A stretch of 29,357 nt of DNA from the NCBI RefSeq assembly GCF_016714285.1, contig NZ_JADJNN010000008.1, positions 388,669 to 418,025 on the forward strand. Direction: 5' to 3'. A program made the translations under genes and the position numbers. Every line of letters starts with the position of its first letter. Position 1 is the first letter of the stretch. Source of the DNA: Nannocystis sp. (GTDB lineage Bacteria; Myxococcota_A; Polyangia; Nannocystales; Nannocystaceae). The notes beneath the pieces were generated by a model, which ran no database searches, was not told the DNA's origin, and worked only from the letters and a program-made list of their open reading frames with translations. Below are positions 7,858 through 29,357 of this stretch, piece by piece.

Positions 7858-7927
7858 CGCCGACATCCACGCCCAGATCGGCCGCCTCGCCGCGCGCGCG
7901 GGCGACGTCTCGGCCGCGATCCAGAGC

Positions 7928-9859: not shown

Positions 9860-9866
9860 GCAACCC

Positions 9867-12800: not shown

Positions 12801-13718
12801 GAGGCCGGCCTGCGCGCGGAGCTGTGGATCGCCCGCGACAACTTCGGCGCCGACATCAAGCCCGGCGGCAACCCGCTGTTCGAGTCCTACGATTCGCCCT
12901 ACCTGGCCGTTTGGACAGGTGAGGGCGAGACCCCGACGATGGTCATCACCGGCTCCAAGGTGCTGCCGCTCGGCTACCTCGTGCCCGGCCTCTCGGGCGC
13001 GGCCGGCTTTCGCATCCCGCTCAGTGAGAGCGACACGGCGCCCGGCGCCGTTCGCTTCCCGGTCCGGCCGGCCGCGCTCGCCGACCGCCGCAGCTACCGC
13101 GTCCGCCTCGAGCTCGGCCGCGACGGCAGCGGCCGCGTCGAGGGCAGCATCGAGCTGCAGGGCATGGAGGCCGCGGCCTGGCGCGACGTGCTGCGAAACC
13201 TCGACCGCGACCGCATCAACGACGGCTTCGAGCGGGCCGAGCTGTCGGTGCTGTTCCCCGGCGCCACGGTCGAGCTCGCGGACCTGCAGATCGAGCAGGA
13301 GAAGCAGCTGGACGCCCCGCTGCGCCTGATCTTCCAGGGCGGCATCCGCGGCGCCGTGGTGGCCCAGGGCGGCGAGCTGCTGATGCGCGCCGCGACCGTG
13401 CCGCTCAACGTCGGCCTCGGCTACACGGCGCTGCCCGAGCGCAAGACCGGCTACGCGATCCCCTACGCGCCGTTGCTCGATGCCGAGGTGACGATCCAGA
13501 TCGCCGGGGCCAAGTTCACCGGCACGCCCAGCGCCGAGACGATCGACACGCCGCAGGGCAGCTACCACCGCAGCGTCGAGGTCGGCGCGGAGGGCCTGAC
13601 CGTGCGCACGCGTGCGACTCTCGGCACCGGCGTGTTCGGCCCCGAGGTCTACCCCGCGCTCGCCAGCCTGACCCGCCGGGTCAAGGCCGCCGAGGACCAG
13701 GTCATCCGCGCCCGCTGA
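9867..13718 (+). CDS. Large (1283 aa) putative lipoprotein with the same architecture: TPR, DUF3857-like, then a transglutaminase-like fold whose catalytic residues are degenerate (predicted pseudo-enzyme).
   Basis: N-terminal signal with lipobox (MLSFAAIAAPISLPAC). TPR-like helices span ~aa 400-680 (ALYKKLLERTPDDVDVMAELAELAI..., EALGYRRKILGLNPYATSMHVAIADL...). A DUF3857-like segment follows (VLVLDRSVTRVYPDGSQRHIIHTITELRSKEA). The transglutaminase core aligns to the upstream paralog, but the Cys position reads SARKGSGMILLKTMLREAGL (no Cys) and the His and Asp positions are also replaced. It starts 7 nt after the previous stop. Confidence 0.85.
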   Translation: MSFPSAPVLRAMLSFAAIAAPISLPACKHKAETTQAPFTADAARQRAAELERQLVKQPQDDVAALELANLQWLHLRATAKALPTFDRLAARGNPYAQVARMIIADARLDLVTVRSMAHALIKGAAAAPGLAPADVAERAALAELGARYIGENHGELPDDDLDFTRFFAEVERLPLPVAVTQPLLSQRASIARRLDQPYLAYYEAQGCVRAWQVGKVEGHLEAFELRRAAADPAAFELDPQAVLTPLSCVVRTWNPTPRAGMRRMRSYLDVPGEQLTLNISSQEAVRVYLDGAPIHRSDRSDRWPRGDNTLELKLQPGIHRLDVHTAVPREKVWVLVRATDHRGQAVPASVEAKGPLAPAFTGQPVRPRSPFFPYAQGPIAGPSYAPLRMLLAASDAMADANSDDAEGFIKALRHAGPNFAEGELLVAAFETGDPTRDRSTSTARQRAAIERALAIDPGLARARIRLLEMGLERGETSEVLDAVTALGDKALRNVPGELLRYQAYLARGNEFQSDAALARAAAIHPEHCAVLKAQRVVAQRRGDVAAEDALSAKVETCPGTTGTRARLAARRGRRDEARALYKKLLERTPDDVDVMAELAELAISEDKLDEALGYRRKILGLNPYATSMHVAIADLQARMGDPAAARASVGEALVRVPQSMAMWQVAQNIGIPDDLEALRVDGLPIVAAYRAGKHDHAGVGEVLVLDRSVTRVYPDGSQRHIIHTITELRSKEAIDRYGEIEPREGTRTLTLHSIKADGRVFEPESIPEKDGLSLRGLQIGDFVEYEFMFEREELGLLPGYVDLSTFRFQSPETPFHISEMIVAYPSDMPLKAELRAGAPQAVVTRLAAVAGLAAGAGQGELTVQHWRVDRSPRLGVEPQMRNSLFEVPNVRVYSDVDTAAWLSALGLRIYTGQRSNLELRQLTRKLIAGKTSPRARLEALHRWVVENVEEVGELTVPATLTLSARKGSGMILLKTMLREAGLRAELWIARDNFGADIKPGGNPLFESYDSPYLAVWTGEGETPTMVITGSKVLPLGYLVPGLSGAAGFRIPLSESDTAPGAVRFPVRPAALADRRSYRVRLELGRDGSGRVEGSIELQGMEAAAWRDVLRNLDRDRINDGFERAELSVLFPGATVELADLQIEQEKQLDAPLRLIFQGGIRGAVVAQGGELLMRAATVPLNVGLGYTALPERKTGYAIPYAPLLDAEVTIQIAGAKFTGTPSAETIDTPQGSYHRSVEVGAEGLTVRTRATLGTGVFGPEVYPALASLTRRVKAAEDQVIRAR

Positions 13719-15799: not shown

Positions 15800-17173
15800 C
15801 TAGACCTTGAGGCCCGCGAGCGGTCCGGTGCTGTCGTCGCCGAAGCTCGGCGTCGGCACCTCGAAGGCCTCGGCGATCGAGATGAAGAGGTTGGCGAGCG
15901 GGGTCTTGTCCGGGACCTTGAGGTGGCGGCCCGGCGTGATCGCGCCGCCGAGCTTGCCGGCGACCAGCACGGGCAGGTCATCGTGGTTGTGGGCGTTGCC
16001 GTCCGCGATCTCCGAGCTCAGATAGACCACGGTGTTGTCGAGCAGGGTGCCGTCGCCGTCGGGGCTGTCCTTGAGCTTCTGCAGCAGTTTGGCGAACTGC
16101 GCGACCTCCCAGGTGTCGATGATCTCGAGCTTGGCGAAGTTCTCGGGCAGGTCCTGGTGGTGGCTGATCTCGTGGTGGGCCCCCGGGGCGCCGATGAACG
16201 CGTGGTCGCGGCCGCTGCCGGCGTTCTCGAGCATGAAGGAGATGACGCGGGTCTGGTCGCACTGCAGCGACAGCACCATCAGCTCGGTCATGAGGTCGAC
16301 GTGGGTCGCGTGGTCCTGGTAGGCGCCGGAGAACATCGCCGGCAGCTCGCAGACGGCCTCGGTCTTCTCGTTGCTGACCCGCTTCTCGAGGTCGCGCAGG
16401 CCGGTGAGGTACTGCTCTAACTTGTCGCGGTCGGTCTTGCCGAGCTTCTTCTGCAGATCGAGCACCTGGTCGTTGGCGTAGTCGATGACGCTGAGGCGGT
16501 TGGCGTGGCGGATCGCCAGCTGCTCGGCGGTCGCGTCGGGGTCGAAGCCGGAGAACAGCAGGTCGAAGATCACCTGCGGGTCGGACAGCTTGGGCAGCGG
16601 CGTCTTCGGGTCGGCCCACGAGATGTTGCTGGTGTAGGCGCACGAGTAGCCGCTGTCGCAGTTGCCCATGGTGCCGCCGCTGGCGGTGCCGAACTGCAGC
16701 GAGCGGTGCGGCGTCGCGTCGCCGATCTGGTTGGCGATCAGCTGGTCGATCGAGATGTTGTTGACGAAGTCGACCTCGGACTTGAGCACGTGCGTGCAGG
16801 TGAGGAAGGCCGAGGTGCCGCCGGCGTGGTCGCCGGGGCCCTCCGGCTTGGCCGGCAGGTTGGCCAGGCCGCTCAGGACCAGCACGTCGCCCTTGAGGTC
16901 GACCATCGCGTTGGCGTCGACCAGCGGCGCCAGGATCTTGGTGAGCGCGTAGTCGGGGCCCTCGCTGGCCGGGGTCCACGAGGGCATGTGGATGCCGCAG
17001 GGCAGGTAATAGAACAGGGCGCGCAGCGGCGAGGGCATCGGCGCTGCGCTGGCGCGTCCTCCGACTTTGGGCGCGAGCGCCTCGAGCCAGGGCAGGGCGA
17101 TCAGGGCGCCGGCGCCTCCGAGCATGGCCCGGCGAGACAGAGTGCGGCGAGGAGGGGTGGAGCTGCGCGTCAT
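15800..17173 (-). CDS. Tat-signal protein of the DUF1552 family (it may instead be the related DUF1501 family). This is the usual partner of PSD/PSCyt3 multi-domain proteins.
   Basis: The ORF track extends it to 17701 through an Arg/Pro-rich shadow. I place the start at ATG 17173-17171, where MTRSSTPPRRTLSRRAMLGGAGALIALPWLEALA is a twin-arginine signal with the typical ALPxLE motif. AGGAGA is 8 nt upstream. It contains an HHEISHH histidine cluster. It sits 32 nt downstream of the PSD/PSCyt3 gene on the same strand. Confidence 0.8.
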   Translation of the reverse strand: MTRSSTPPRRTLSRRAMLGGAGALIALPWLEALAPKVGGRASAAPMPSPLRALFYYLPCGIHMPSWTPASEGPDYALTKILAPLVDANAMVDLKGDVLVLSGLANLPAKPEGPGDHAGGTSAFLTCTHVLKSEVDFVNNISIDQLIANQIGDATPHRSLQFGTASGGTMGNCDSGYSCAYTSNISWADPKTPLPKLSDPQVIFDLLFSGFDPDATAEQLAIRHANRLSVIDYANDQVLDLQKKLGKTDRDKLEQYLTGLRDLEKRVSNEKTEAVCELPAMFSGAYQDHATHVDLMTELMVLSLQCDQTRVISFMLENAGSGRDHAFIGAPGAHHEISHHQDLPENFAKLEIIDTWEVAQFAKLLQKLKDSPDGDGTLLDNTVVYLSSEIADGNAHNHDDLPVLVAGKLGGAITPGRHLKVPDKTPLANLFISIAEAFEVPTPSFGDDSTGPLAGLKV

Positions 17174-17205
17174 GGTGGTGGTTCTCCTGGGCTCGCGGGC
17201 GCGGT

Positions 17206-19374
17206 TCACATCGAGGGGTCGCCGCGGCGCTGGCGGAAGGCGTCGGAGGTGACGAGGCTGACGACGAGGTCGGCGAAGCGGTACTCGCCGGTCTCGAAGC
17301 CCGCGACGACCTCGTCGAGGTAGGGGATGTCGGCCAGCGCGGTCGCCCGGCCGAGCGCGTAGATGAAGGTCTTGCGGGCGACGCAGCGGGTGAAGTCGGG
17401 CTCGCTGCTGATCAGCGTCTGCATCTCGAGGCCGTCGACGAAGGGCTTGCCGTCCGGGAGGGTGCCGCTCGGGTCGATCGTCAGCCCCTTCTCGTCGGCT
17501 CGCCAGGCGCCGAGCGGGTCGTAGTGCTCGAGGCCGAAGCCGAGCGGGTCCATGGCGACGTGGCAGCCGGCGCACTTGGGGTCGGCGCGGTGGGCCTCGA
17601 GGATCTCGCGCTGCGTCTTGCCCTCCACCGGGTCGAGCTTGGTGTCGACGCCGGGCGGCGGCGGCGGCGGGACCTGACACAGCAGGTTCTCCAGCACCCA
17701 CTTGCCGCGCTTGACCGGCGAGGTGTGATCGGCGTGCGAGAGCACGGTCATCAGGCCGGCCTTGTTGAGGATGCCCTGGAACGGCAGCTCACCGAGATCG
17801 GCCTCGACGAAGTCGGGCCCGAACGCGCCCTGCAGGCCGTAGTGGGCCGCCAGGCGCTGGTCGACGAAGGTCTTCTTGCTGGTCAGGAGCTCGAGCATGC
17901 TGCGCTCACCGGCGAAGAAGCTGGCCGCGAACAGCCGCATCTCGGTGCGCATCGAGGCCTTCATGCCGTCGTCCCACTGCGGGTAGAGCAGGACGTCCTT
18001 GAAGGCGAGGTTGACGTTGCGGATCAGCCACCACTGGCCGGCGAAGTTGTCGATGAGGGCGACGGCCCGCGGGTCCTCGAGCATGCGCCGGGCCTGCAGC
18101 TCGACCTGCTTCGGGTCCTGCAAGTTGCCCTGGTCGGCGGCCAGCAGCAGCTCGTCGTCGGGCATGCTGCTCCACAGGAAGTAGGACAGGCGCGAGGCGA
18201 GCTCGTGGTCGGCGAGCGGGTGCGGCGTGAGGTCGGTCGGGGTCGGGTCGAGCTCGACGCGGAACACGAAGTGCGGCGAGACGAGCACCGCCTGGAGGGC
18301 GACGCGCAGGCCGGCCTCGAAGTCCTGACCGGCGGCCTTGGCCTCGCTGATGAACTGGTAGAGGCGCTCGACCTCGGCGTCGCTGATCGGGCGGCGCCAG
18401 GCCCGACGGGCGAAGGCGCGGAGGATCTCGCGGCCGCAGCTGTCCTCGCCGTCGACCACGGGGTCGCAGATCATGATGCGCTTGCGCTGCTCGTTCTCCC
18501 CCATCACCAGGTCCTGCGGGCCCTCGACGCTGAACCAGTCGACCAGCAGGTTGCGGTCGGCCATCAGCATCTCGTCGTAGTAGTCGTTGGTGAACTCGAC
18601 CGCGAACTTGTGCAGGCCGGCGGTGGCCTCGATCTCGACCTCGTAGATCGCGGCGGCGTTCTCGACCGCGTCGGTGTCGACCATGAAGACCGGCACCTGG
18701 TCGACGGTGAGGTTGACGTGGGGGAGGTCGGGTCCGGCCTGCTGACCCCAGACGCGGGCGCGAAACAGGTACTTGCCGGCGTAGGGCAGCTCGATGGTCT
18801 GGTACACCTCGCCGTTGGAGTAGAGGTTCCAGGCGTCGCCCGACTGCTGACCGACCGAGGCGAGGGCGGTCTCCGCCTCGATCTGGAACTTGGTCGGGTC
18901 GGTGATCGGGATCGCCATCGCCTCGGCGATGAGGCCGTCGGCGGCGCGCTCATACAGCTCGGCCTGCAGCGGCGAGGTGCTGAGCACGTCGGCGATGTTG
19001 TCGAAGCCGAGGCCGAAGTCGTCGGCAGGGAACGCGTCGGCCGGGGTCTGGCTGGTGCCGAGCAGGTCGCGGACGGTGTTGTTGTACTCGTTGCGGTTGA
19101 GGCGGTGGATCGTGACGCGGCCGGGGTCGTCGGCCTCGCCGCCGCTCTCGGCGGTGTCGGTGGCCGTGGTGTCGTCGCCGACCGAGGTGGTCGGCGGCGT
19201 GTCTGTCGCGGAGCCGGGCTCGGTGGCGGCGCCGGTCGCCTCGCTCGCGCTGCCCTGACTCGAGTCGCCGCAGCCGCTCACGGCGACGAACAGCGCGAGG
19301 CCCCACGTCGCGCCGCCGAGCGCGGCGAGGTCCGATCGACAGAGGATGTTGCGGTGGTGCAGGGAAGCCATCAC
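17206..19374 (-). CDS. Multi-domain DUF1587/DUF1595/DUF1592/DUF1588(PSCyt3)/DUF1585 lipoprotein (Planctomycete-type PSD/PSCyt family) with a CxxCH heme-binding-like motif.
   Basis: Lipoprotein signal (LALFVAVSGC). DUF1587-like RLNRNEYNNTVRDLLG. DUF1595/1592-like LASRLSYFLWSSMPDDELL. PSCyt3-like KCAGCHVAMDPLGFGLEHYDPLGAWR. The poly-Pro stretch CQVPPPPPPGVD is typical of the family. Confidence 0.85.
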   Translation of the reverse strand: MMASLHHRNILCRSDLAALGGATWGLALFVAVSGCGDSSQGSASEATGAATEPGSATDTPPTTSVGDDTTATDTAESGGEADDPGRVTIHRLNRNEYNNTVRDLLGTSQTPADAFPADDFGLGFDNIADVLSTSPLQAELYERAADGLIAEAMAIPITDPTKFQIEAETALASVGQQSGDAWNLYSNGEVYQTIELPYAGKYLFRARVWGQQAGPDLPHVNLTVDQVPVFMVDTDAVENAAAIYEVEIEATAGLHKFAVEFTNDYYDEMLMADRNLLVDWFSVEGPQDLVMGENEQRKRIMICDPVVDGEDSCGREILRAFARRAWRRPISDAEVERLYQFISEAKAAGQDFEAGLRVALQAVLVSPHFVFRVELDPTPTDLTPHPLADHELASRLSYFLWSSMPDDELLLAADQGNLQDPKQVELQARRMLEDPRAVALIDNFAGQWWLIRNVNLAFKDVLLYPQWDDGMKASMRTEMRLFAASFFAGERSMLELLTSKKTFVDQRLAAHYGLQGAFGPDFVEADLGELPFQGILNKAGLMTVLSHADHTSPVKRGKWVLENLLCQVPPPPPPGVDTKLDPVEGKTQREILEAHRADPKCAGCHVAMDPLGFGLEHYDPLGAWRADEKGLTIDPSGTLPDGKPFVDGLEMQTLISSEPDFTRCVARKTFIYALGRATALADIPYLDEVVAGFETGEYRFADLVVSLVTSDAFRQRRGDPSM

Positions 19375-19559: not shown

Positions 19560-20645
19560 ATGCGTGGGGTCCTTGGTCTGGTAGCCGGGCTGGTTGCGAT
19601 CGCGGGGGCCGCTGGCTGCCTCGTCGTGAAGATCGACACCAGCGACTCGCTGACCGACCTGTCGCTCAGCGACACGCTGACCGACAGCTTCACCCTGACC
19701 TCGAGCCCGACCGACACCCTGCCGACCGGCGATCCGACCGGCGATCCGACCAGCGTGACGGACACGGACACGGACACGGACACCACGCCGGGGGTGTGCG
19801 GCGACGGGCAGGTCGGGGTCGGTGAGGCCTGCGACGACGGTGACGCGGACAACAGCGACGAGTGCCTGGCGAGCTGCGAAGTCGCGAGCTGCGGCGACGG
19901 CTTCGTGCACGCGGGCGTCGAGGCCTGCGACGACGGCAACCAGAACGGCGGCGACGGCTGCGAGCCCGACTGCACCCTCGGCGAGTGTGGCGACGGCGTG
20001 GTCCAGGGCGGCGAGCAGTGCGACGACGGCAACGGCGACAACGCCGACGATTGCCTGGCCACCTGTCTGAACGCGAGCTGCGGCGACGGCTTCGTGCGCG
20101 CCGGCGTCGAGGCCTGCGACGACGGCAACGCCAGCGACACCGACGCGTGCGTGCAGGGCTGCGTGGCGGCGAGCTGCGGCGACGGCTTCGTGCAGGCCGG
20201 CACGGAGCAGTGCGACGACGGCAACCAGACGCCGGGCGACGGCTGCGACAACTGCATCAGCGACGCCCTGCCGCCGGAGTGTCAGGGCATCGCGGTGCTG
20301 CAGGAGGCCTCGCGCAACGTCAGCGCCGGCACGGACGAGGTCGAGTGCGATCTCGAGCTCCCCGTCGAGGGCCAGTGGTCGCGCTTCTCGGGCCCCGCGG
20401 GCACGACCATGCCGACGGTCGCGCCGCCGGAGTTCGCCTGCGGGACGCACGCCCCGGGCTGGCTCAATGGTGCGATCCCCGTGCTGGCCGACGGCATCGT
20501 CGCGCGAGACGTGTGTTTCCACTGGGAGGGCAACACCTGCAACTGGAAGGTCCCGATCTCGGTGCGCAACTGCGGGCCCTTCGTGATGTTCAAGCTGATG
20601 CCAGTGCCGACCTGCGCCCTGCGCTACTGCGGCAGCGAAGGTTGA
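19560..20645 (+). CDS. Lipoprotein with five Myxococcus cysteine-rich repeats (TIGR02232-type C-G-D-G...E-x-C-D-D-G-N...D-x-C) and a C-terminal Cys/Trp-containing domain of unknown function.
   Basis: Signal plus lipobox ([20 protein letters not shown]). D/T/S-rich linker (TDTDTDTDT). Repeats [27 protein letters not shown] / [28 protein letters not shown] / [27 protein letters not shown] / [28 protein letters not shown] / [27 protein letters not shown]. The repeats are also visible as ~57-nt near-identical DNA blocks, for example 19882-19938 versus 20075-20131. Confidence 0.85.
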
Positions 20646-20672: not shown

Positions 20673-21800
20673 GTGAGGATGTCCGCCGCGCCGCGTCCCT
20701 GGTCCCTCGCGCTGTCCTTCCTCGTGATCGGGGCCTGCGGGCGCGGGGAGCTCGCGGTGACCGAGAGCGGATCGAGCAGCGGCGGCAGCACCGACGACGT
20801 GACGACGACGGGCGCGCCCACGACCATGCCGCCGACCACCACGGTCACGCCGACCACGTCGCTGACCAGCGGGGACCCGACCAGCGAGAGCGACACCAGC
20901 ACCAGCAGCAGCAGCGGCGATACCAGCACTGGCACTACGGGCACGGTCGAGACCGGCGGCAGCAGCAGCGGCGGCGCGAGCAGCAGCGGATCGAGCGGAG
21001 GCGACACTGGCGGCAACAGCTGCTGCGTCGCCAGCGACGCGCCCGGCTGCGACGACGTGAAGGCCGAGGCATGCGTGTGCGCGGCGGCGCCGGAGTGCTG
21101 CGCCGACGCTTGGAGCCTGGGCTGCGTGGCCAAGGTCGACCTGCTCGGCTGCGGCGACTGCGGCGGGCCGCCGCCGAAGGGCGAGTGCTGCGAGGTCGGC
21201 GTGGTGCCCGGCTGCAGCGATCCCGCGATCGAGGTCTGTGTGTGCGAGCAGATGCCGGAGTGCTGCTCGGACGTCTGGACGGCCGAGTGCGCGGCGGGGA
21301 TCGAGGGCCTGATGTGCGGCAGCTGTGGTCCGGGCCCCGAGGCGTGCTGCGAGGTGCAGCAGACCCCGGGCTGCCCGAGCCCGCAGATCGAGGACTGCGT
21401 GTGTGTGGTCGACGCGTTCTGCTGCGAGTCGGCGTGGGACGATATCTGCGTCGGTGAGGTCGACAGCCTCGGCTGCGCGATGTGCCCGGTGCCGGTCGGG
21501 CCCTGCTGTGAGGGCAGCGGCGGGCTCGGCTGCGAGGACCCGGGCATCACCGCCTGCGTGTGCGCGGCGATGCCGAGCTGCTGCGACAGCGAGTGGACGG
21601 CCGAGTGCGCGGCGATGGTCGAGCCGCTCGGCTGCGCGATGTGCCCGAGCAACTGCTGCGTGGCGCACGGGGACCCCGGCTGCGAGGAGCCAGCCGTGAA
21701 CGACTGCGTGTGCGCCCAGGACAGCTTCTGCTGCACGGACTTCTGGGACGATATCTGCGTCTCGGAGGTCGAGGGGCTGGGCTGCGGCAGCTGTGCGTGA
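20673..21800 (+). CDS. Lipoprotein carrying five tandem copies of an apparently unnamed ~48-aa repeat with 10 cysteines each: CC-x6-GC-x7-CVC-x5-CC-x3-W-x3-C-x7-GC-x2-C.
   Basis: Signal plus lipobox (LALSFLVIGAC). Long S/T/G tether. Repeats begin CCVASDAPGCDD..., CCEVGVVPGCSD..., CCEVQQTPGCPS..., CCEGSGGLGCED..., CCVAHGDPGCEE..., each with conserved CVC, a PECC/FCC pair, W and LGC-x-x-C. GTG 20673 and ATG 20679 are alternative starts. Confidence 0.75.
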   Translation: MRMSAAPRPWSLALSFLVIGACGRGELAVTESGSSSGGSTDDVTTTGAPTTMPPTTTVTPTTSLTSGDPTSESDTSTSSSSGDTSTGTTGTVETGGSSSGGASSSGSSGGDTGGNSCCVASDAPGCDDVKAEACVCAAAPECCADAWSLGCVAKVDLLGCGDCGGPPPKGECCEVGVVPGCSDPAIEVCVCEQMPECCSDVWTAECAAGIEGLMCGSCGPGPEACCEVQQTPGCPSPQIEDCVCVVDAFCCESAWDDICVGEVDSLGCAMCPVPVGPCCEGSGGLGCEDPGITACVCAAMPSCCDSEWTAECAAMVEPLGCAMCPSNCCVAHGDPGCEEPAVNDCVCAQDSFCCTDFWDDICVSEVEGLGCGSCA

Positions 21801-21801
21801 C

Positions 21802-23103
21802 TCACTCGACGGTGGCGATCAGCTCCTTGAACTTCGGCGCGTGGGTCATCTCTTGCAGCTGCACGGCGGGCCGCGGCATCGCCTCGCCGCCGCGCAGCTT
21901 GCCGAGGTGGTCGCTCCAGCGGGTGTCTGACGGGTAGATGACGACGCTCGGCAGGGTCTTGCTGTGGAAGGCCCGCTGCATGGCGAGCTTGCCGTCGTCG
22001 GCGCTGGTGACGTCGATCTTGATCAGCTCGAAGCGGGCATTGAGGAGCGGCTCGACGCTGGGGTCGTGGAAGGTGAGCTTGTCCATCTCGAGGCAGGGGG
22101 CGCACCAGGTCGCGCCGAAGTCGATCACGACCGGGAGGTGGCGCTCCTCGGCGGAGCGCAGCGCGGCCTCGAGGCCGGCGCTGTCCTCGACCGTCCGCCA
22201 GGCGCCGCTCGGGACGTAGATCATGTTGTTGATCGCTATCTGGGCGCCCAGCACGGTGAGCGCGACGGCGACGCCCTTGCCGAGCTTCTCGCCGAGGCCG
22301 CCGTAGAAGCTGCGGTGGATCGCGCCGCCGAGCAGGCCGGCGAGGGCGAGCGCGACGCCGAGGTAGAGGCCCCAGGTCGGGTCGGTCATGAAGCGGCGCA
22401 GCGCCGGCGACAGCGGGGCGACGAACCACAGGGCCATGACCACGAGGGCGATGCCGAAGAAGCTCTTGACGTACTCCATCCAGCGGCCGGGGCGAAACAG
22501 GCTGGCCCCGAGCGCGACGGCGAAGAACAGGCTGCCCATGCCGAGCGCGTAGGTGAAGAGGAGCGAGCCGCCGTGGAACACGCCGCCGCCGTCGGCCGAG
22601 GACGCGGCGATGTACGCGAGCAGCGAGAGCAGCACCGGGCCGGTGCAGGGCGCCGAGATGAAGCCGCTGACGAGGCCCATGCCGAAGGCGCCGAGCGGAC
22701 CGGCGCCGCCGACCGAGTTGAGCCGCGTCTGCAGGGAGCTCGGCAGCTGGAGGTCGAAGGCGCCGAACATGCTGGCCGCGAGGGCGAGCAGGAGGCCGAC
22801 GATCGGCAGCACCACGACGGGCTCGCCGAGCCAGGCCCCGAACTGGCCGCCGGTCAACGCGACGACGATGCCGAGGGTCGTGTAGAGCGAGGCCATGCCG
22901 AGCACGTAGGCGCTGGCGAGGAACAGCGCGCGCCCGCGTGACACGCCCTGGGCCCCGAACACGGCGACGGTGATCGGGATCAGCGGGTACACGCAGGGGG
23001 TGAGGTCGACCAGGACGCCCTGACCGAAGGCCCAGGCGTAGGTGCCGAGAGTGGCCGCCTGGAGGCCGTCGGGCGCGAGGAGGGAGGCGAGGAGTGTCGT
23101 CAT
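21802..23103 (-). CDS. DsbD/CcdA-type thiol:disulfide electron transporter fused to a C-terminal thioredoxin domain (WCAPC). It lacks the N-terminal DsbD-alpha domain.
   Basis: Polytopic membrane core with the two conserved CcdA/DsbD cysteines (DLTPCVYPLIP and FISAPCTGPVLL). C-terminal periplasmic thioredoxin fold VIDFGATWCAPCLEMDK. Its stop (21802-21804) lies 1 nt from the convergent stop of the Cys-repeat lipoprotein gene. Confidence 0.85.
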   Translation of the reverse strand: MTTLLASLLAPDGLQAATLGTYAWAFGQGVLVDLTPCVYPLIPITVAVFGAQGVSRGRALFLASAYVLGMASLYTTLGIVVALTGGQFGAWLGEPVVVLPIVGLLLALAASMFGAFDLQLPSSLQTRLNSVGGAGPLGAFGMGLVSGFISAPCTGPVLLSLLAYIAASSADGGGVFHGGSLLFTYALGMGSLFFAVALGASLFRPGRWMEYVKSFFGIALVVMALWFVAPLSPALRRFMTDPTWGLYLGVALALAGLLGGAIHRSFYGGLGEKLGKGVAVALTVLGAQIAINNMIYVPSGAWRTVEDSAGLEAALRSAEERHLPVVIDFGATWCAPCLEMDKLTFHDPSVEPLLNARFELIKIDVTSADDGKLAMQRAFHSKTLPSVVIYPSDTRWSDHLGKLRGGEAMPRPAVQLQEMTHAPKFKELIATVE

Positions 23104-23220
23104 GGCCAGCGCCTAACCATACGCCGTCGGCCCGGAGTCTGACCCGCCGTGTTGCGGGTGGCGATCGGAGTTAGGCCACGCGCGGGCCCGGGAATACGGA
23201 ATTTGGCCAGGCGGGGGTCG

Positions 23221-24948
23221 TCACCCGGGGATCGGCGGCTCGCACAGCCCGCCCGACTCGATCTGGGCGTTGGTGCGGAAGGTGTTGAGCGCCTTCCACG
23301 AGGGCGGCTCGAACTGCGGGATGGTGCCGTCCTCGCGGACGTTGGTCACGTGATAGGTGTGTTGATTCCAGATCCGACGCGCCTGGATCCACCGGTCACC
23401 CTTGTCGCGGATGACCTGCACGGTCGGCGAGCTCATGCCGCCGTATAGGTTGGAGACGACGACGATCTCGGCGGAGCCGTCGTTGTCGACGTCGGCGACG
23501 ATCGGGTACTCGGTGCCGGTGGCGCTGCTGCGCGGGGTCTTCAGCAGCGGCGTGCCGGCGCCGTCGAAGACGAACATGAATTGCTCGTCGGCGTACATCG
23601 CCTCGGCGATGCCGTCGCCGAGGAAGTCGAAGGCCGTACCGGCGGCGATGCCCGACTGATCCGAGACGGTGGCCTTCCAGATGATCGTGGCATCGGCGCG
23701 GTAGCTGGCGTAGTTGTTGCCCGAGCTGACGGCGTAGTCGCTGATGTCGTCGCCGTTGAAGTCCTGGATGGTGGCGGGGCGGTACCAGACGAGGCCGTTC
23801 GGCGGGTCGCCGGTCGGCCGCTTGTCCTGATACTTGATCGCGCCGGTGTGATCGAGCAGCGAGATGCCGTTGACGTTGGTGAGCAGCACCTCGGGCTCGG
23901 GGTCGCCGTCGAGGTTGGCGACCTGCGGGAAGCCGGGGAGCAGGTTGGTGTTGTAGTAGATGGTGCCGTCGTGGTGCACGGCGGCGTGGCCGATGACGAC
24001 CTCGAGGTCGCCGTCGCCGTCGAGGTCGGCGGCCGCGGTGGCCGAGTAGTTGGGCGCGGCGGCGGCGGCGGTCCACAGCAGGGCGCCGTTGTGATCGAAG
24101 AGCTGGTTGCCGCCGAAGATCTCGATGTCGCCGTCGTTGTCGAGGTCGGCGAGGCCGAGCGCGGCGATGTAGGAGTTGGCCCACGGGGCCTGGCTCTGCC
24201 ACTTCTGGGTGCCGTCGTGCTCCCACGCGATCAGGCGGCCGTCGGAGCCGGCGCTGACGATCTCGGCGATGCCGTCGCCGTCGATGTCGCCGAGGGCCGG
24301 TGTGACGGTGGAGTCGACCGGCGCGGCGAGCTGGAAGTGGGCGGTGCCGGTGGCGCCGTCGAGCACGTAGATGTGGCCGGGGCCGCCGATCCCGGTGGCG
24401 GCGACGACGACGATGTCGGGGATGTCGCAGAGGTCGATCGCGCCGTCGGCGTTGTCGTCCGTGAGGTTGGCGACCAGCGGCGTGACCACCGAATAGATCT
24501 CGCCGTTGGCGCCCGGCCAGCTCCATTGCACTTCGGGCTCGAAGCTGTCGGCGGGGGCCTCGTCGTCGCACTCGCCGATCGCGTTCATGTCGTCCTGCAC
24601 CTTGCACAGGTCGACGGGCGGGCCGGTGGTGCTGCTGGTGCTGGGGTCGCCGGTGCTGTCGGGCGTACCCGTGGTGCTGGTGCTGCCCGGATCGCCGGTG
24701 GTGCCGGTGAGGGTGAGTGCGCCGCTGCTCGCGTCGCCGCCGCTGCTGTGTGACTCGCTCACGCCGCTGTCGGTGGTGGCGCCGGTGGTGATGCTCGTGG
24801 TCGGGAGCGGGTCGCTGGTGCTCACGCTGACGCCCGTCGGCGTGGTCGGGCCAGGGCCGTTGCTGGTGCCGCTGTCATCGCGGCCGCCGTCGTCGCCGCA
24901 GGCGAGGCCGAGGGTGAGCGCGCCGAGGGCGAGACGGAGGGGCTGCAT
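23221..24948 (-). CDS. FG-GAP/VCBS-repeat beta-propeller lipoprotein, a paralog of the 1759..4371 gene.
   Basis: Lipobox LGLACGDDGG. T/S/G-rich tether. FG-GAP blades (DIDGDGIAEIVS, DLDNDGDIEIFG, DLDGDGDLEVVI, DFNGDDISDYAV, DFLGDGIAEAMY, DVDNDGSAEIVV). Shared C-terminal motif RIWNQHTYHVTNV...FEPPSWKALN, compared with RPVWNQHTYHITNV...AEPPSWATPA in the first paralog. Confidence 0.85.
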   Translation of the reverse strand: MQPLRLALGALTLGLACGDDGGRDDSGTSNGPGPTTPTGVSVSTSDPLPTTSITTGATTDSGVSESHSSGGDASSGALTLTGTTGDPGSTSTTGTPDSTGDPSTSSTTGPPVDLCKVQDDMNAIGECDDEAPADSFEPEVQWSWPGANGEIYSVVTPLVANLTDDNADGAIDLCDIPDIVVVAATGIGGPGHIYVLDGATGTAHFQLAAPVDSTVTPALGDIDGDGIAEIVSAGSDGRLIAWEHDGTQKWQSQAPWANSYIAALGLADLDNDGDIEIFGGNQLFDHNGALLWTAAAAAPNYSATAAADLDGDGDLEVVIGHAAVHHDGTIYYNTNLLPGFPQVANLDGDPEPEVLLTNVNGISLLDHTGAIKYQDKRPTGDPPNGLVWYRPATIQDFNGDDISDYAVSSGNNYASYRADATIIWKATVSDQSGIAAGTAFDFLGDGIAEAMYADEQFMFVFDGAGTPLLKTPRSSATGTEYPIVADVDNDGSAEIVVVSNLYGGMSSPTVQVIRDKGDRWIQARRIWNQHTYHVTNVREDGTIPQFEPPSWKALNTFRTNAQIESGGLCEPPIPG

Positions 24949-25011
24949 CGGCGCACGGTCCCACGCGGGTCAAGCAGCGGTCAAGCAGCGGGGGAAGGCA
25001 CGCGCCCGCGC

Positions 25012-26991
25012 TCACAGGTCCCTGCAGGGCGGCTCGCGGCCGAGGCTCACGGCCTGGAGGTTCAGCTCGGCCGCGGTGGCGGGCGAAAGCGCGGCGCAGC
25101 AGGCGTACTCGCTGTTGTCGTTGATCAGCGAGATCAGGAGATCCTCGGGCAAGCCGAAGCAGCACGCCGGCGTGGTGGCGCCGCCGTCGGAGGTCGCGCT
25201 GCACCGGGGGAGCGCGACGCAGGTGCCGTCGTCTGGCTCGTAGCACGAGATGCGCACGCCGGGGGTGCCATCGGTGTAGTCGAGCACGACCTCGGAGTCG
25301 GAGAACAGCGCGGTGCCGATCAGACCGTCGGGCTGGAGGGCCTCGGGGTTGGTGTCGCGCCGCATCGCCGTGACCATCGGGTGATCGGCGGGGATGATGA
25401 CGGTGGTGATCCAGCGCTCGGGGTTCGGCCCGGGGCTGCCGCTCGAGTTGTCGATCACGAAGGCCTCGCCGAGCACGGCGGCCGTATCGAGGGCCGCGTC
25501 GGCGCAGCTGTTGCCGCTGCCGAGGCGCGGGCTGTTGCCCGCGGCGGCGCTGTCACACTGGGCCTTGAGCGCCTTCTGGCGCCGCTCGAGCCGCTGGCAC
25601 GCGGATGGGCCGCTCGAGCTGGCGAGGCCCGGCACGAGGCCGACGCTGCGGACGCGCACCTGCAGGAGCGGCTGCTCCTTGCTGCCAGCGGGGGGCCAGC
25701 CGGGCAGCTCGAGCGCGCCGATCGTGCCGTCGATGCAGGCGGGTGCGCCGAGGTGGCTGCTGCCGATGTCGCCGCCGTCGCCCGCGCAGGGCGGGAGCTT
25801 GAGCTCGTTGAGCAGGCGACGGGCGCTGTCCTCGAAGAGCACGAGGCCGGCGATGCCGGTGGCGACGACGAGGCTGGCCTCGCGGCCGCGGTCGAGGTCG
25901 GTGGTGTCGAGCGGGGCCGGGGTGACGACGCAGCCGCGGTCTTCCTCGGCGCGCGTACCCGACGCGCCGGTGGCGGAGTGATAGCTGCCCGCGGCGCTCG
26001 CGGGTCCAGCGGCGAGGCGACAGCGGCCGCGATCCGGGACCCACTCGACGGTCGCGGGCGGCGGGGCGACGCAGGCGTCGAGGACCATGCGGCTCGGTCG
26101 CAATGCGCTGGCGACTCGCTCGCGATCGAAGGTGCTGAGGTAGTCGCAGCTCTGGCCGCCGGCGAGGCACACGTCGGTGATGTCCTTGCCGAGCAGGAGT
26201 CCGGGGAACTGCAGCGGGATCGCGGCGCGACCCTGGTCGGCGAGCACGGCCTCGGAGCCGGGAAACTCGCGGTAGAAGGTGACCTCGAAGCGAGTGCCGT
26301 CTGGCTCGCGGTGGTGGGCGAAGCGGACCGCGAATTCGCGGAGCAGGTTGCCGCCGATGACGCCGCCGACGTAGGCCGGTGCGCCCGCGGTGCCAGTGCG
26401 CCAGCTGAATGGTTGGGCGAGCGTCGACGGGTCGCGCGGCAGGCGGACGACCGGGGTGTTGCTGAAGCGGAAGCGGCTGAGCGAGTCGCCGAGGACGGTC
26501 GCCTCGGCCTGCGGATCGAGGATCTGCGCCGCTGAGCGCAGCTCGAAGCAGGTGCGCTCGGGGACGGCGACGGTGGTGTCGTCGGCCAGCATGGTGATCG
26601 CGGTGGCGCTGTCGATCAGCACCGGCATGCATGCACCCGGGTCGCAGGTGTCAGGCGGGCCGAGGCAGACCTCGCTGCAGCCGCCCTGGGTGCCGGGGCA
26701 GGGCTCCGGGAGGTAGGCGAGGCGCGGCAGGGGCGAGGCGTCGCCGGAGCCGAGAGCGACCGGGCGTCCGAACTCACCCTCGGCCTCGACCGAGTCGAAG
26801 TTGCAGGCCAGCGTGAGGGCCGTCGTGAGGCCGATCGTGAGGCCATTCGTGAGGCCATTCGTGAGGGCCAGCGCGAGCGGTGCGCAGTGGAGCCCGGAAA
26901 TTGCCGCGAGACGCGGGCGAGGCGCCTGTGGGCCTCGCGTCGCGTCTCGTGGTCTCTCTGCGCTGGTTGCCACCCTGCCGGGTTCTAGCAC
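25012..26991 (-). CDS. Hypothetical secreted lipoprotein with many cysteines (CPGTQGGCSEVC..., ...CCFGLPEDL...YACCAAL). No domain recognised. Start uncertain.
   Basis: 659-aa ORF with a GTG start at 26991, only 13 nt after the MlaC-like stop. The lipobox LTLAC is preceded by a long hydrophobic stretch encoded by a 12-nt tandem repeat. The true start may be internal (GTG or CTG candidates). GC3 is biased. The antisense ORFs over it look like shadows. Confidence 0.6.
   Translation of the reverse strand: MLEPGRVATSAERPRDATRGPQAPRPRLAAISGLHCAPLALALTNGLTNGLTIGLTTALTLACNFDSVEAEGEFGRPVALGSGDASPLPRLAYLPEPCPGTQGGCSEVCLGPPDTCDPGACMPVLIDSATAITMLADDTTVAVPERTCFELRSAAQILDPQAEATVLGDSLSRFRFSNTPVVRLPRDPSTLAQPFSWRTGTAGAPAYVGGVIGGNLLREFAVRFAHHREPDGTRFEVTFYREFPGSEAVLADQGRAAIPLQFPGLLLGKDITDVCLAGGQSCDYLSTFDRERVASALRPSRMVLDACVAPPPATVEWVPDRGRCRLAAGPASAAGSYHSATGASGTRAEEDRGCVVTPAPLDTTDLDRGREASLVVATGIAGLVLFEDSARRLLNELKLPPCAGDGGDIGSSHLGAPACIDGTIGALELPGWPPAGSKEQPLLQVRVRSVGLVPGLASSSGPSACQRLERRQKALKAQCDSAAAGNSPRLGSGNSCADAALDTAAVLGEAFVIDNSSGSPGPNPERWITTVIIPADHPMVTAMRRDTNPEALQPDGLIGTALFSDSEVVLDYTDGTPGVRISCYEPDDGTCVALPRCSATSDGGATTPACCFGLPEDLLISLINDNSEYACCAALSPATAAELNLQAVSLGREPPCRDL
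26812..26871. repeat. Five tandem copies of a 12-nt unit (CGTGAGGSCNNT) lying inside the signal-peptide h-region of the 25012..26991 gene. They encode LTNG-LTNG-LTIG-LTTA-LT.
   Basis: Direct reading: cgtgagggccgt cgtgaggccgat cgtgaggccatt cgtgaggccatt cgtgagggccag. Confidence 0.8.
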
Positions 26992-27004
26992 AGCTGGCAG
27001 CCGG

Positions 27005-27628
27005 CTACTTGGCGGCCGCGTTGGAGGCCAGCTCGGTCAGCTTGGCCTCGAGGCGGGCGATCAGCTCGTTGATGCCCTTGTCCTTGAGGATCTTGTTGAA
27101 CTCGAACTTGTAGTTCTTCGCCAGGCTGATGCCGTCGGTGATGATGTCCTCGGTGAGCCAGACGCCGTTGACTTGGTGCATCACGTAGACGACTTCGACG
27201 ACCTCGGGCTTGCCGTCGCGGCTGAGCGAGACGTTGGTGATGACGTGGGTGCCGCGGGGCTTCGTCTCCTCGCCGACGTAGGCCAATTCGTACTTCTTGT
27301 CGGTCCGGATGCGCTTGAGGTAGTTCTCGCGGATGAGGCGGGTCAGCAGCGCCTCGAACTCGGCGCAGCGCGGCTCGCACTTGGCGGCGTAGCGGGCGGG
27401 GCCGCCGAGCGAGGTCTCGGCGAGCGCCTTGTAGTCGAGCAGCGCGTCGACTTCCTTCTGCAGCGTGGCGATATCGGCACGCTTCTTCACCAGCTCGACG
27501 ACCTTCCCGTGGCGGGCCTTGAAGGTGTCCATCGCGCCCTCGGCGGCGGCGGCGGGGCGGGCCAGGCCCAGCAGGCACACAGAGGAGAGGGCGAGCCCGG
27601 TGATGAAGTTTCGTGCGGAATTCAGCAT
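27005..27628 (-). CDS. MlaC/Ttg2D-family periplasmic lipid-binding protein (auxiliary component of ABC-type phospholipid transport).
   Basis: Signal peptide (MLNSARNFITGLALSSVCLLGLARPAAA|AEG). The C-terminal HQVNGVWLTEDIITDGISLAKNYKFEFNKILKDKGINELIARL matches the conserved W-x-x-D-x-I-x-E/D-G-x-S...KGI block of E. coli MlaC. RBS AAGAGG is 6 nt upstream of the ATG. Confidence 0.75.
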   Translation of the reverse strand: MLNSARNFITGLALSSVCLLGLARPAAAAEGAMDTFKARHGKVVELVKKRADIATLQKEVDALLDYKALAETSLGGPARYAAKCEPRCAEFEALLTRLIRENYLKRIRTDKKYELAYVGEETKPRGTHVITNVSLSRDGKPEVVEVVYVMHQVNGVWLTEDIITDGISLAKNYKFEFNKILKDKGINELIARLEAKLTELASNAAAK

Positions 27629-27675
27629 TGGTGCCTCTTTGAGTGGCGCTCAGACGCCTTGCGTTACAGTGCGAT

Positions 27676-29357
27676 TCACGGAGTGGGTGGTGTCGCGCCT
27701 GCGGGGTCCTGAAGCGACACTCCCACGGTACGCGAGAGCGAGGCCAGCGCGACGTTCTGGGCATGGATGGACTCGAAGTGCTTGAAGCGCCACTCGGCCC
27801 AGCGGGTGAGCGCCCTCTCGAGGTCGGTGAAGTTGCCGCCACCGACGGTCTGCTTGAGCTGTTGGTCGATGACCAGCTGTTTGGCCTTGCGGATGGCGCT
27901 GGCAGTGAGCTTGACCGCTTGTTCGGCTTCGAGCAGGTCGCGGTAGGCCTTCTCGACCTCGAGGGCGAGCAGCAGGTTCGCTGCCTCACGCTGGGCCTCG
28001 GCCTCGCGGCGCTCGGCGCGGGCCTTCTTCAGGTTGAAGGCCTGGTTGTGGAAGTCGAGGGTCCAGTTGAGGGCGAGGGCGAGGACCAGGCGGCTGTAGT
28101 TGAAGCGGTCCTGATAATACAGGGCGCGCATGTCGCGGTCGGCCTTGTTCGAGAAGGCGATCTGCACCGAGGCGACGACGCCGAGGTCGGGGAGGAACAT
28201 CGAGCGGGCGAACTTCTCGCCGGCCTTGCGGAGATCGACCAGACCGGCGGCCATCTTGGCCTCGGGGCGGGCCTTGAGACCGAGATCACGGTAATGGTCG
28301 ACCGGTTTGAGGCCGCCCGCGACGCGGTCCGTGAGCAGGTCGCGCTCGCTGACATCGAAGCCGGGCGGGGCGGCCTCGCCGGCGATCGTCCACAGGGTCG
28401 CGAGGGCGACGGCCTCGATCTTGCGGGCCGCGTTCATGCGCTCCTGCAGGGTGAGCTCGCCGAGCTCGACGCGGATGAGGTCGGCGGGGTCGCGGTCGGG
28501 GTTGGCCTCGTCGGGGTCGGCGTCGTCGCCCTCGCCGAGCTCCTTCGCGATCTGCCGCTTTGCGTCCTGCAGGACCGACCAGGCCTCGTGCAGGATGCCG
28601 ATGCTGCCGCGCGCGAGCAGGAGGGCGGTGTGGGCCTGATAGACGCGGAGGATGGTCTCCTGGCGGGCGCGCTCCTTGGCGAGCTGGGCCAGGGCGACGC
28701 CGGCGCGGGCCATGGCCTTGCCGTTCTTGATCTTGCCGAAGGTGTAGAGGGGGACGACGAAGTCGGCGTTGAAGCGGACGGTGACGCCGGCGCCGGCGAG
28801 CTGCTTGAAGTAGCCGCCGACGGTGTCGATGTCGACGCCGCCGGGCGGGCGGCAGAACTGGAAGTCGATCGGCGTCGTTGTGCCGAGCGCGTCGCTGGCC
28901 GGGAGGGTGAGGTCGTCGCAGCGGGTCTGGAAGCCAGGCGCGAGCGCGGTGGTGGTCTTGATCACCGGGACCCAGGCGAAGCGGGCCTTGAGCAGGACGG
29001 CCTCGAGCTGCTCGACCTGGGCGTCGGCGGCGCGGATCAGCGGGTTCTGCAGGCCGAACTCGACGATCTGGGCCCGGCTGAGCTGAGGGACGCCGTCGGG
29101 GCGCGGACCGTAGGCGTCCATGCGGCGGGCGGGCGGGAGCTCGAAGAGGTCGGCCGGGGCCTGGGCGCCCGCGCTGCTGCGGGTGCTGAGGACCGGGGTC
29201 GCGGCGGTGGTGGCGGGCTTGCTGTCCTTGGGGACAGGTGTCGCGGTGGTGGGGTTGCTGTCCTTGGGGACAGGTGTCGCGGTGGTGGGGTTGCTGTCCT
29301 TGGGGACAGGTGTCGCGGCGGGGTTGCTGTCCTTGGGGACAGGTGTTGCGGCGGTTT
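27676..29357 (-). CDS. TolC-like outer-membrane factor (OEP family) with an N-terminal repetitive Pro/Thr-rich linker. Partial: the N-terminus runs off the window end.
   Basis: The ORF track starts it at Met 29121, but that Met is not followed by a signal peptide. My translation of the same frame is open to 29355 and reads TAATPVPKDSNPAATPVPKDSNPTTATPVPKDSNPTTATPVPKDSKPATTAATPVLSTRSSAGAQAPADLFELPPARRMDAYG..., so the real start is beyond the window. The body has the paired coiled-coil and beta-barrel repeats of OMF proteins (for example QERMNAARKIEAVALATLW, NWTLDFHNQAFNLKKARAERREAEAQ). Confidence 0.85.
   Translation of the reverse strand, partial: TAATPVPKDSNPAATPVPKDSNPTTATPVPKDSNPTTATPVPKDSKPATTAATPVLSTRSSAGAQAPADLFELPPARRMDAYGPRPDGVPQLSRAQIVEFGLQNPLIRAADAQVEQLEAVLLKARFAWVPVIKTTTALAPGFQTRCDDLTLPASDALGTTTPIDFQFCRPPGGVDIDTVGGYFKQLAGAGVTVRFNADFVVPLYTFGKIKNGKAMARAGVALAQLAKERARQETILRVYQAHTALLLARGSIGILHEAWSVLQDAKRQIAKELGEGDDADPDEANPDRDPADLIRVELGELTLQERMNAARKIEAVALATLWTIAGEAAPPGFDVSERDLLTDRVAGGLKPVDHYRDLGLKARPEAKMAAGLVDLRKAGEKFARSMFLPDLGVVASVQIAFSNKADRDMRALYYQDRFNYSRLVLALALNWTLDFHNQAFNLKKARAERREAEAQREAANLLLALEVEKAYRDLLEAEQAVKLTASAIRKAKQLVIDQQLKQTVGGGNFTDLERALTRWAEWRFKHFESIHAQNVALASLSRTVGVSLQDPAGATPPTP
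29221..29357. repeat. At least four tandem copies of a 33-36-bp unit (gctgtccttggggacaggtgtcgcggtggtggggtt) extending to the window edge. Each copy contains the palindrome CTGTCC-TTGG-GGACAG. It encodes the TPVPKDSNPTTA repeats of the OMF N-terminal linker.
   Basis: Direct reading: copies at 29221-29256, 29257-29292, 29293-29325 (3-nt deletion) and 29326-29357+ (truncated by the window). Confidence 0.9.

Follow-up and report, generated by a model that had tools for sequence, protein, structure and literature searches.

The locus examined here raises the question of whether five closely packed genes on one strand of a Nannocystis chromosome segment form a single dedicated system, or whether a smaller conserved unit is embedded among them. 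The analysis covered a 29,357-nucleotide (nt) stretch of Nannocystis sp. DNA, hereafter the window (NCBI RefSeq assembly GCF_016714285.1, contig NZ_JADJNN010000008.1, positions 388,669 to 418,025 of the forward strand). In the order of transcription, the five minus-strand genes encode a TolC-family outer-membrane factor (OMF), a protein of the MlaC superfamily, a Cys-rich lipoprotein (g3), an FG-GAP beta-propeller lipoprotein (g4), and a DsbD protein with a thioredoxin domain (DsbD-Trx, g5), and two genes for extremely Cys-rich lipoproteins (p1 and p2) converge on the end of this run from the plus strand. A preliminary description of the sequence had proposed that the run is dedicated to the surface display and disulfide isomerisation of Cys-rich or propeller surface lipoproteins. 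Our strongest result is that the MlaC-like gene and a gene for a lipoprotein with a predicted pepsin fold, g3 in the Nannocystales, are a conserved two-gene module across the class Polyangia. The run itself is a composite in which this core pair is accompanied by lineage-specific additions, namely the OMF and DsbD genes, and by a recent FG-GAP insertion.

The anatomy of the gene run and of the module was established with high confidence. The window has a GC content of ~72%, and real genes were told from shadow open reading frames by the GC content at codon positions. All five minus-strand reading frames displayed a strong coding signature by this measure, with third-position GC of 0.91-0.98 and the lowest GC at the second position. 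The intergenic gaps taken from the coordinates along the run are 47, 13, 63, and 117 nt, and Pfam recovered the TolC-like OMF, MlaC-like, FG-GAP propeller, and DsbD-thioredoxin domains, so that the tight spacing and the domain assignments of the preliminary description both hold. The start of g3 is ambiguous, being either the GTG at 26991 (659 amino acids, aa) or the GTG at 26973 (653 aa), and the gap between the MlaC-like gene and g3 is thus 13 or 31 nt. Scans for sigma-70 promoters and intrinsic terminators turned up neither a promoter-like site nor, on the minus strand, a terminator-like one in DNA of this GC content (72%), and the operon boundaries were therefore taken from gene spacing.

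To place the run in its evolutionary setting, gene order was scored by tblastn in 58 Nannocystales loci, comprising 55 from a genome scan for g3 together with loci from gene look-ups, and the denominators given here and below are the loci with enough flanking sequence available. Every scanned locus that was named to the genus or family level belonged to the Nannocystales. The MlaC-like gene (27005..27628, minus strand, 207 aa) was located directly upstream of g3 (25012..26991, minus strand) in 51/53 informative loci, the OMF gene was found upstream of the MlaC-like gene in 36/50, and the DsbD-Trx gene directly followed g3 in 37/52. In most Nannocystales species these four genes are co-directional and contiguous. 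A profile search with the g3 family across 1.84 billion representative proteins recovered 38 full-family members together with a tail of further proteins, ~400-500 aa long, that have the lobe cores in common. Homologs of g3 itself are restricted to the Nannocystaceae and related metagenome-assembled genomes (MAGs), where all of them are annotated as hypothetical.

The pairing was also encountered in a sister family of ~400-500 aa proteins from uncultured Polyangia MAGs, of which the members inspected are lipoproteins. For this family 80 metagenome loci were collected, and the scan used a narrower alignment (A5) as the broader one (A4) was too diverse. An MlaC-like gene lies immediately upstream of the pepsin-like gene in all 57 sister loci with enough flank, and in one of them (L142) the stop of the former and the start of the latter overlap. 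The outer flanks of the two families differ entirely: YgfZ and OMF genes on one side and DsbD on the other in the Nannocystales, versus a divergent PrkA gene upstream and genes for a 275-aa protein (k1), a pilin-like protein, and aroA downstream in the sister loci. With both families pooled, the pair of MlaC-like and pepsin-fold genes was kept in 108/110 informative loci at a protein identity of ~25-30%, and g3 is the hub of the conserved unit.

One explanation that must be weighed against this evidence is that the gene order is simply inherited, with the OMF serving a pump encoded elsewhere, the MlaC-like protein a housekeeping role as the Mla carrier, g3 an independent one, and the DsbD a general one such as cytochrome c maturation. 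Several observations are in line with it, since no inner-membrane partner genes are found nearby, the unrelated genes PdxJ, RarA, aroA, and tyrA are also syntenic over long distances, and the adjacency of the OMF and DsbD genes has been lost in several clades. It does not readily account for the survival of the pair in nearly all loci at such low identity, when none of the other flanking genes is shared between the families, nor for the start/stop overlap in L142, as conservation of this kind is unexpected for unrelated neighbors. We consider shared ancestry of the gene order unlikely as the whole explanation.

Additional genes were observed around the sister pair. In one sister locus (L143, 11281-12108) the ~275-aa protein, which has no Pfam family, is encoded with a 4-nt overlap with the preceding pepsin-like gene, and it is also present in L142 (11662-12450). 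It is often followed in the sister loci by genes for a prepilin-type (N_methyl) protein and a DUF6184 protein, and all three are possible further components of the sister module. A separate candidate, the protein P0255, was considered as a natural fusion of MlaC and g3 and was rejected, as an out-of-frame read-through in its sequence marks it as an assembly artefact. In the literature searched, we did not find a description of an MlaC-linked pepsin-like lipoprotein, and the search likewise returned nothing relevant for the Bacteroides fragilis protein 9iy9.

We then sought to characterize g3, for which no Pfam or NCBIfam match was obtained. The protein contains 26 Cys residues, of which about 22 are invariant in the family alignment, and is predicted to be a lipoprotein from its lipobox signal peptide. 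The lipobox Cys (C63) follows a hydrophobic stretch and is present in at least 90% of 29 aligned sequences, with the consensus L-[AVT]-[AG]-C in most family members and TLAC in the window. The fold begins ~7 residues past this Cys, without a long flexible tether. It was noted that a 12-nt tandem repeat (window 26805-26869) inside the signal peptide gives a reiterated 'NGLT' hydrophobic segment (LTNGLTNGLTIGLT) before the lipobox, and that in relatives the h-region is shorter and ordinary.

The predicted structure of g3 is a bilobal pepsin fold of peptidase family A1, to which large insertions and a Cys-rich helical C-terminal extension have been added. It matches both peptidases and protein binders derived from peptidases, TAXI and basic 7S globulin among them. 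At the sequence level, no match was obtained to Pfam, including its Asp and TAXi models, a PDB sequence-profile search with the g3 family returned nothing at E<=10, and hhalign of the family against a human pepsin sequence gave no signal, so the relationship to pepsin rests on the predicted structure. Pepsin folds without catalysis are represented by the wheat xylanase inhibitor TAXI, soybean basic 7S globulin, and cockroach Bla g 2, and bacterial pepsin homologs include B. fragilis 9iy9 and the C-terminal domain of the Mycobacterium tuberculosis PE_PGRS protein Rv0977. Unlike all of these, g3 is predicted to be lipid-anchored, is coupled to an MlaC-like gene, and carries ~22 conserved Cys and insertions, with no detectable sequence similarity to them.

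The two lobes differ in the residues expected at a catalytic center. In the N-lobe, the psi-loop motif LID127-S-A/G-T contains an Asp (D127) that is invariant in the family alignment (our alignment A1). The C-lobe carries VVA377-T-G followed by a strand and a helix, which compares with VDTGTS of pepsin, and A377 is probably the equivalent of the C-lobe catalytic Asp, as judged from the motif and the predicted strand-loop-strand-helix register. Across 95 full-length g3-family proteins this position reads A[TS][GS] in 90/95 and is Asp in 0/95, and the pair of D-T/S-G motifs that defines family A1, one in each lobe, is thus lacking in g3. Because the C-lobe Asp has been lost in all 95 members, g3 is most likely a pseudo-protease, that is, a binding protein with a cleft kept for binding, and not an active peptidase.

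The sister proteins vary at the same position, with DTG in 12/48 and ATG in 26/48. One sister protein with DTG in both lobes gave a confident predicted fold (pLDDT 86) that matched the same pepsin-family structures. The mixture of DTG and ATG supports positional homology and a progressive loss of catalysis. These residues bear on a further alternative, in which the pepsin-fold lipoprotein would act on peptides or (lipo)proteins, as a protease where DTG is present in both lobes and as a receptor or inhibitor in the case of g3, with the MlaC-like protein as an accessory that, for example, shields a lipid anchor. The resemblance to peptidases and to peptidase-derived protein binders, the retained C-lobe DTG of the sister proteins, and the invariant N-lobe Asp would all fit such a function. 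The absence of the C-lobe Asp from every g3-family protein would not, and there is no obvious proteolytic rationale for the near-constant pairing with a lipid-carrier family, so that a protein-directed function appears improbable.

The other member of the pair has a Sec signal peptide (cleavage AAA|AEG) and matches the MlaC/Ttg2D superfamily (PF05494) at 76.7 bits (E 2.4e-21, cut-off 26, HMM 26-165 of 166). Its best NCBIfam model was HpnM (TIGR03481) with 53.1 bits, below the cut-off of 160.1, and the MlaC equivalog PRK15117 (NF011697) gave 22.3 bits, below the cut-off of 195. The HpnM model outscored the MlaC model in 22/22 Nannocystales family members and in 5/5 sister proteins tested, and all 22 family members missed the NF011697 cut-off. 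The MlaC partners form a separate branch of the MlaC superfamily. No mlaFEDB or VacJ-type mlaA gene was found in the window, in the Pfam-annotated flanks, or in the annotated conserved neighbor clusters within +/-10 kb. The MlaC-like protein belongs to the core of the module, and we propose that it shuttles lipid through the periplasm.

Considering the two proteins together, the model that we tentatively favor, at somewhat less than an even chance, is that a lipid shuttle of the MlaC type works with the pepsin-fold lipoprotein as its partner at the outer membrane, where g3 would presumably be localized. The MlaC-like protein would carry a hydrophobic lipid across the periplasm and dock on the membrane-anchored lipoprotein, whose former substrate cleft would act as a hand-off or receptor site, comparable to the role of MlaA for MlaC or that proposed for HpnS with HpnM. 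In Nannocystaceae-type genomes, the TolC-family OMF gene was added upstream and its product may be an outer-membrane barrel partner, comparable to OmpC/F for MlaA, and the DsbD protein, which has beta and gamma domains, would supply reducing power to isomerise the ~11 disulfides of g3. Squalene-derived lipids such as sterols are candidate cargo because the cassette often abuts mevalonate and HpnCDE genes in a sterol-producing order, and a phospholipid is the default alternative. In this scheme we infer the physical interaction between the MlaC-like protein and g3, the role of the OMF, and the identity of the cargo.

A number of observations weigh against this lipid-shuttle model. The HpnM and MlaC NCBIfam scores are far under their cut-offs, and the lean toward HpnM is weak evidence. 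The match of A377 to the catalytic Asp follows from motif and secondary-structure register, not from residue-level superposition, and a quarter of the sister proteins keep DTG in both lobes, so that the partner may originally have been an active protease. The docking of the MlaC-like protein on g3 is itself a conjectural step, and two loci (L052 and L053) carry g3 and DsbD with no MlaC-like gene within 10 kb. General synteny of the region is high across the order, where PdxJ and RarA are conserved nearby as well. No inner-membrane transporter of the MlaFEDB, RND/HpnN, or ABC type was found in the window or in the annotated conserved neighbor clusters within +/-10 kb. Finally, no squalene genes occur close to the pair in Nannocystis sensu stricto, the Enhygromyxa clade (0/11), or the sister loci, and their adjacency elsewhere may therefore be historical.

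In Nannocystaceae-type genomes, the OMF gene (27676..29357, minus strand) belongs to the cassette as an accessory component. Its 5' end lies past the window end, and the full 618-aa product was obtained from a Nannocystis sp. MAG contig (L059) that is 99.6% identical to the window and extends past it. The product matched Pfam OEP in two stretches (92.6 bits, E 3.5e-26), as expected of a protein with two OEP repeats, and remained below the cut-offs of TIGR01844 (52 vs 225) and TIGR01845. No membrane-fusion protein or inner-membrane pump was found beside the OMF gene in the window or the annotated flanks. A 36-nt tandem repeat (4.2 copies, 29209..29355), detected by TRF and followed in translation, encodes a Pro-rich TPVPKDSNPxTA linker at the N-terminus of the protein. 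Within this repeat (L059 8250-8430), the window and L059 align with a break and a self-overlap, a pattern consistent with copy-number variation. The annotated N-terminus of the OMF in L059 looks out of frame.

At 11 loci of the Enhygromyxa, Plesiocystis, and Pseudenhygromyxa type, a polytopic membrane protein of unknown family stands in place of the OMF and could serve the module as a different membrane partner. This protein is ~375 aa long, has no Pfam family, and is encoded at 7912-9039 in L003 and, ~1 kb upstream of g3, in L025, L032, L037, L044, L048, L050, L051, and L054. It was noted that a Cys/His-rich, zinc-finger-like membrane protein precedes it in many such loci.

The neighborhood upstream of the OMF gene bears on the cargo. 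A divergent gene similar to YgfZ/GCV_T was found upstream of the OMF gene in 33/33 loci. Beyond this minus-strand YgfZ gene, L059 encodes HpnE, HpnD, HpnC, a fusion of MVK with HMG-CoA reductase, mevalonate-diphosphate decarboxylase (MVD), and a GHMP kinase, and the block is thus one of mevalonate and squalene-synthesis genes. Among the OMF-containing loci, HpnE was present within 10 kb in 19/30, in which HpnC/D/E lie upstream. No SHC or RND (hpnN) gene was found in the annotated flanks. No bacteria are known whose sterol synthesis is more similar to that of eukaryotes than that of the Nannocystales.

These genes would be in keeping with a cassette that forms the periplasmic and outer-membrane arm of trafficking for sterols or other squalene-derived lipids in the sterol-producing Nannocystales. 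Nannocystis, Enhygromyxa, and Plesiocystis produce sterols (PMC4919349), the MlaC-like protein leans toward HpnM, and the location of HpnM beside hpn genes provides a precedent. The adjacency is nonetheless missing from Nannocystis sensu stricto, from the sterol-producing Enhygromyxa/Plesiocystis clade, and from the sister loci; the divergent YgfZ-like gene separates the two blocks; and no OSC, SMO, or RND gene lies nearby. The link to a squalene or sterol cargo is weak, and we regard a sterol-trafficking arm as doubtful. The more specific form of the idea, in which sterols of the Nannocystales would reach the outer membrane through an HpnM-like MlaC shuttle that delivers them to the pepsin-fold pseudo-protease lipoprotein with its TolC-family barrel, is likewise a rather unlikely one.

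The DsbD-Trx gene (21802..23103, minus strand) was next considered in relation to g3. Its product matched Pfam DsbD_TM (160.7 bits, 4.2e-47) and Thioredoxin_7 (53.8 bits, 2.1e-14), and aligned to positions 171-548 only of the 574 in NF001419 (247.6 bits, missing the cut-off of 330). As in DsbD, CcdA, and ScsB, g5 has a DsbD_TM domain with two Cys, here joined to a C-terminal thioredoxin CxxC; unlike the DsbD of Escherichia coli, it has no N-terminal alpha (Ig-like) domain. The protein begins in the transmembrane (beta) domain and ends with the thioredoxin (gamma) domain carrying WCAPC, and a gene for a glutaredoxin-like (Grx-like) putative lipoprotein stands alongside in most Polyangia. In the sister lineages, a DsbD ortholog of the same beta and gamma composition (43-46% identity) is located 4-6 kb downstream in 9/13 loci with enough flank. 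In the mapped sister loci aroA and tyrA lie between the pair and DsbD, and in L142 DsbD adjoins the glutaredoxin-like gene. Of the Nannocystales loci that carry DsbD, 29/33 have the Grx-like gene alongside it, and in L018 a DsbD gene displaced from g3 is still beside the Grx-like gene.

As DsbD is kept with the Grx-like gene, and apart from the pair in the sister lineages, it is not a dedicated partner of g3. It looks like a general periplasmic reductant module of the ancestral syntenic region that was brought beside g3 in the Nannocystales. The Grx-like protein is a candidate periplasmic redox partner of this alpha-less DsbD, and the ~11 disulfides of g3 make it a plausible client. The Grx-domain protein has a CGVC motif, and the representative inspected carries a signal peptide with a lipobox-like Cys. 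Its gene is found at 15338-16024 in L002 and 18214-18978 in L142, and in most Nannocystales loci lies 1.4-3.7 kb downstream of g3. In the lineage of the window it is absent beside DsbD, and Cys-rich genes occupy that place.

Insight into the assembly of the run came from the spacer 5' of the DsbD gene (23104..23220, minus strand). It is homologous to the ancestral spacer between g3 and DsbD in relatives that lack g4 (L005 7160-7296 and L001 11780-11894; alignment A2). Conserved in it are an element GGCGTATGGTTAGG ~10 nt before the DsbD ATG and an upstream block TTATTCCCGG...CGTGGCCTAACTCC, which may be a promoter or leader and would then imply independent expression of DsbD. The g4 gene (23221..24948, minus strand, 575 aa) encodes a lipoprotein with a long Ser/Thr/Gly/Pro tether and matches to Pfam FG-GAP_3 (74.4 bits in four stretches) and FG-GAP (35.4 bits), the best at 1.1e-20. 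An FG-GAP gene between g3 and DsbD was encountered in 1/52 loci, namely L059 of the same species as the window. Given this distribution and the alignment of the g4-g5 spacer with the g3-g5 spacer of the relatives, g4 reads as a recent, lineage-specific insertion right after the g3 stop that left the ancestral spacer intact. The g4 protein is 32% identical over ~450 aa to another FG-GAP lipoprotein of 948 aa (window 1759-4605, minus strand), and FG-GAP lipoproteins are a multi-copy family in this genome.

The convergent genes have a similarly narrow distribution. The DsbD stop (tca, 21802-21804) and the p2 stop (tga, 21798-21800) are separated by 1 nt, as had been described. The p2 product (20673..21800, plus strand), parsed by translation and repeat structure, has 51 Cys in total, with five 47-aa repeats of 10 Cys each in the pattern CC-x-GC-x-CxC-x-CC-x-W-x-C-x-CxxC after a long Ser/Thr/Gly tether, and no Pfam match; in L059, a faint DUF8252 match was recorded for p2. 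The preceding gene p1 (19560..20645, plus strand) was correctly recognized as a Cys-repeat lipoprotein gene, and by Pfam and NCBIfam it encodes myxobacterial Cys-rich acidic repeats (DUF4215/TIGR02232, myxo_disulf_rpt) and a C-terminal D8C_UMOD, a uromodulin-like domain named after an animal protein. Both p1 and p2 carry Ser/Thr/Gly/Pro-rich tethers. The long tethers that the preliminary description attributed to all of the cargo-like lipoproteins are therefore present in g4, p1, and p2 and missing from g3. The two genes are adjacent to the run only in the close relatives L059, L005, L001, and L056. On this phylogenetic pattern, g4, p1, and p2 appear to be recent and unrelated neighbors outside the conserved module.

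Taken together, these distributions speak to the proposal that the five genes work as one system dedicated to the surface display and disulfide isomerisation of the Cys-rich and propeller lipoproteins in and beside the run. In its favor are the tight, co-directional arrangement, the lipoprotein nature of g3, g4, p1, and p2, the Cys-rich composition of g3, p1, and p2, and the frequent placement of DsbD-Trx directly after g3. The gene order it relies on is conserved for four of the five genes (OMF, MlaC-like, g3, and DsbD) but not for the FG-GAP gene, which is a paralog insertion, or for p1 and p2. Across the Polyangia, DsbD keeps its own Grx-like neighbor, as in L018, and in the mapped sister loci aroA and tyrA come between it and the pair. 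A further difficulty is that TolC-family OMFs are not known to export lipoproteins. Synteny has largely refuted the five-gene surface-display model, and we regard it as highly improbable.

Elsewhere in the window are a sigma-54 activator gene (1-1528, minus strand) and, at 5842-13718 on the plus strand, a series of large genes for TPR and transglutaminase-like (DUF3857/DUF3858) proteins with a beta-lactamase-family gene after them, all of which appear unrelated to the module of the MlaC-like gene and g3. The minus-strand segment at 15800-19374 encodes a PSD2-5/PSCyt3 (DUF1585/1587/1588/1592/1595) protein with an embedded CBM60 and then an HXXSHH (DUF1552) protein, a pair of the 'planctomycete-specific domain' type. 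The PSD-HXXSHH gene pair was also found in L001 and L059, and the PSD protein in L005 and L056.

Compared with described systems, the module most resembles the Mla pathway and the set formed by HpnM, HpnS, and HpnN. An earlier account (bioRxiv 10.1101/2025.07.29.667474) sets out the MlaC-MlaA-OmpC/F architecture together with a hopanoid route proposed for HpnM/HpnS/HpnN, which is encoded beside hpn genes and is a prediction only. Like the Mla pathway, the module has a secreted MlaC-family protein encoded beside a lipoprotein gene and, in the Nannocystaceae, an adjacent barrel-family gene, giving an arrangement of shuttle, lipoprotein, and barrel. It differs in that g3 has a pepsin fold and is not of the MlaA/VacJ type, the barrel candidate is a TolC-family OMF rather than a porin, MlaFEDB is missing nearby, and the MlaC equivalog cut-off is missed. 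With the HpnM/HpnS/HpnN set it shares HpnM as the best model, a lipoprotein partner, and frequently adjoining HpnC, HpnD, and HpnE genes, whereas the score of 53 bits against 160, the lack of shc and hpnN nearby, the pepsin-fold partner, and the sterol-making host order set it apart.

The BstABC proteins of Methylococcus capsulatus, the only characterised bacterial sterol transporters (PMC10942540), offer a further comparison. Both cases involve a candidate envelope route for polycyclic triterpenoids in a Gram-negative bacterium that produces sterols, with isoprenoid or sterol genes close by. The components differ, with an RND/MMPL protein, a PhnD-like binding protein, and a TPR T-component in BstABC versus the MlaC-like protein, pepsin-fold lipoprotein, and OMF here, where sterol binding is putative. 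As to its kind, we infer that the module belongs to periplasmic lipid shuttling of the Mla/HpnM type with a novel partner; the pepsin fold of g3 and its hub role were not apparent in the preliminary description.

The delivery of lipids, sterols and hopanoids in particular, to the outer membrane of Gram-negative bacteria is understood only in part. MlaC-type carriers have MlaA as their known partner at the outer membrane, and HpnS is the predicted equivalent for HpnM. The recurrent pairing of an MlaC-like gene with a pepsin-fold lipoprotein gene (108/110) points to a different outer-membrane partner and would add a new use of the aspartic-peptidase fold. The analysis also provides a family-level description of more than 100 proteins now annotated as hypothetical. 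If the sterol route were true, it would represent a second bacterial sterol-trafficking system, unrelated to BstABC, in which a peptidase cleft has been repurposed as a lipid receptor. The pair is a concrete and testable candidate for sterol or lipid trafficking in myxobacteria, and the MlaC/pepsin-fold pairing may provide lipids with a new path to the outer membrane.

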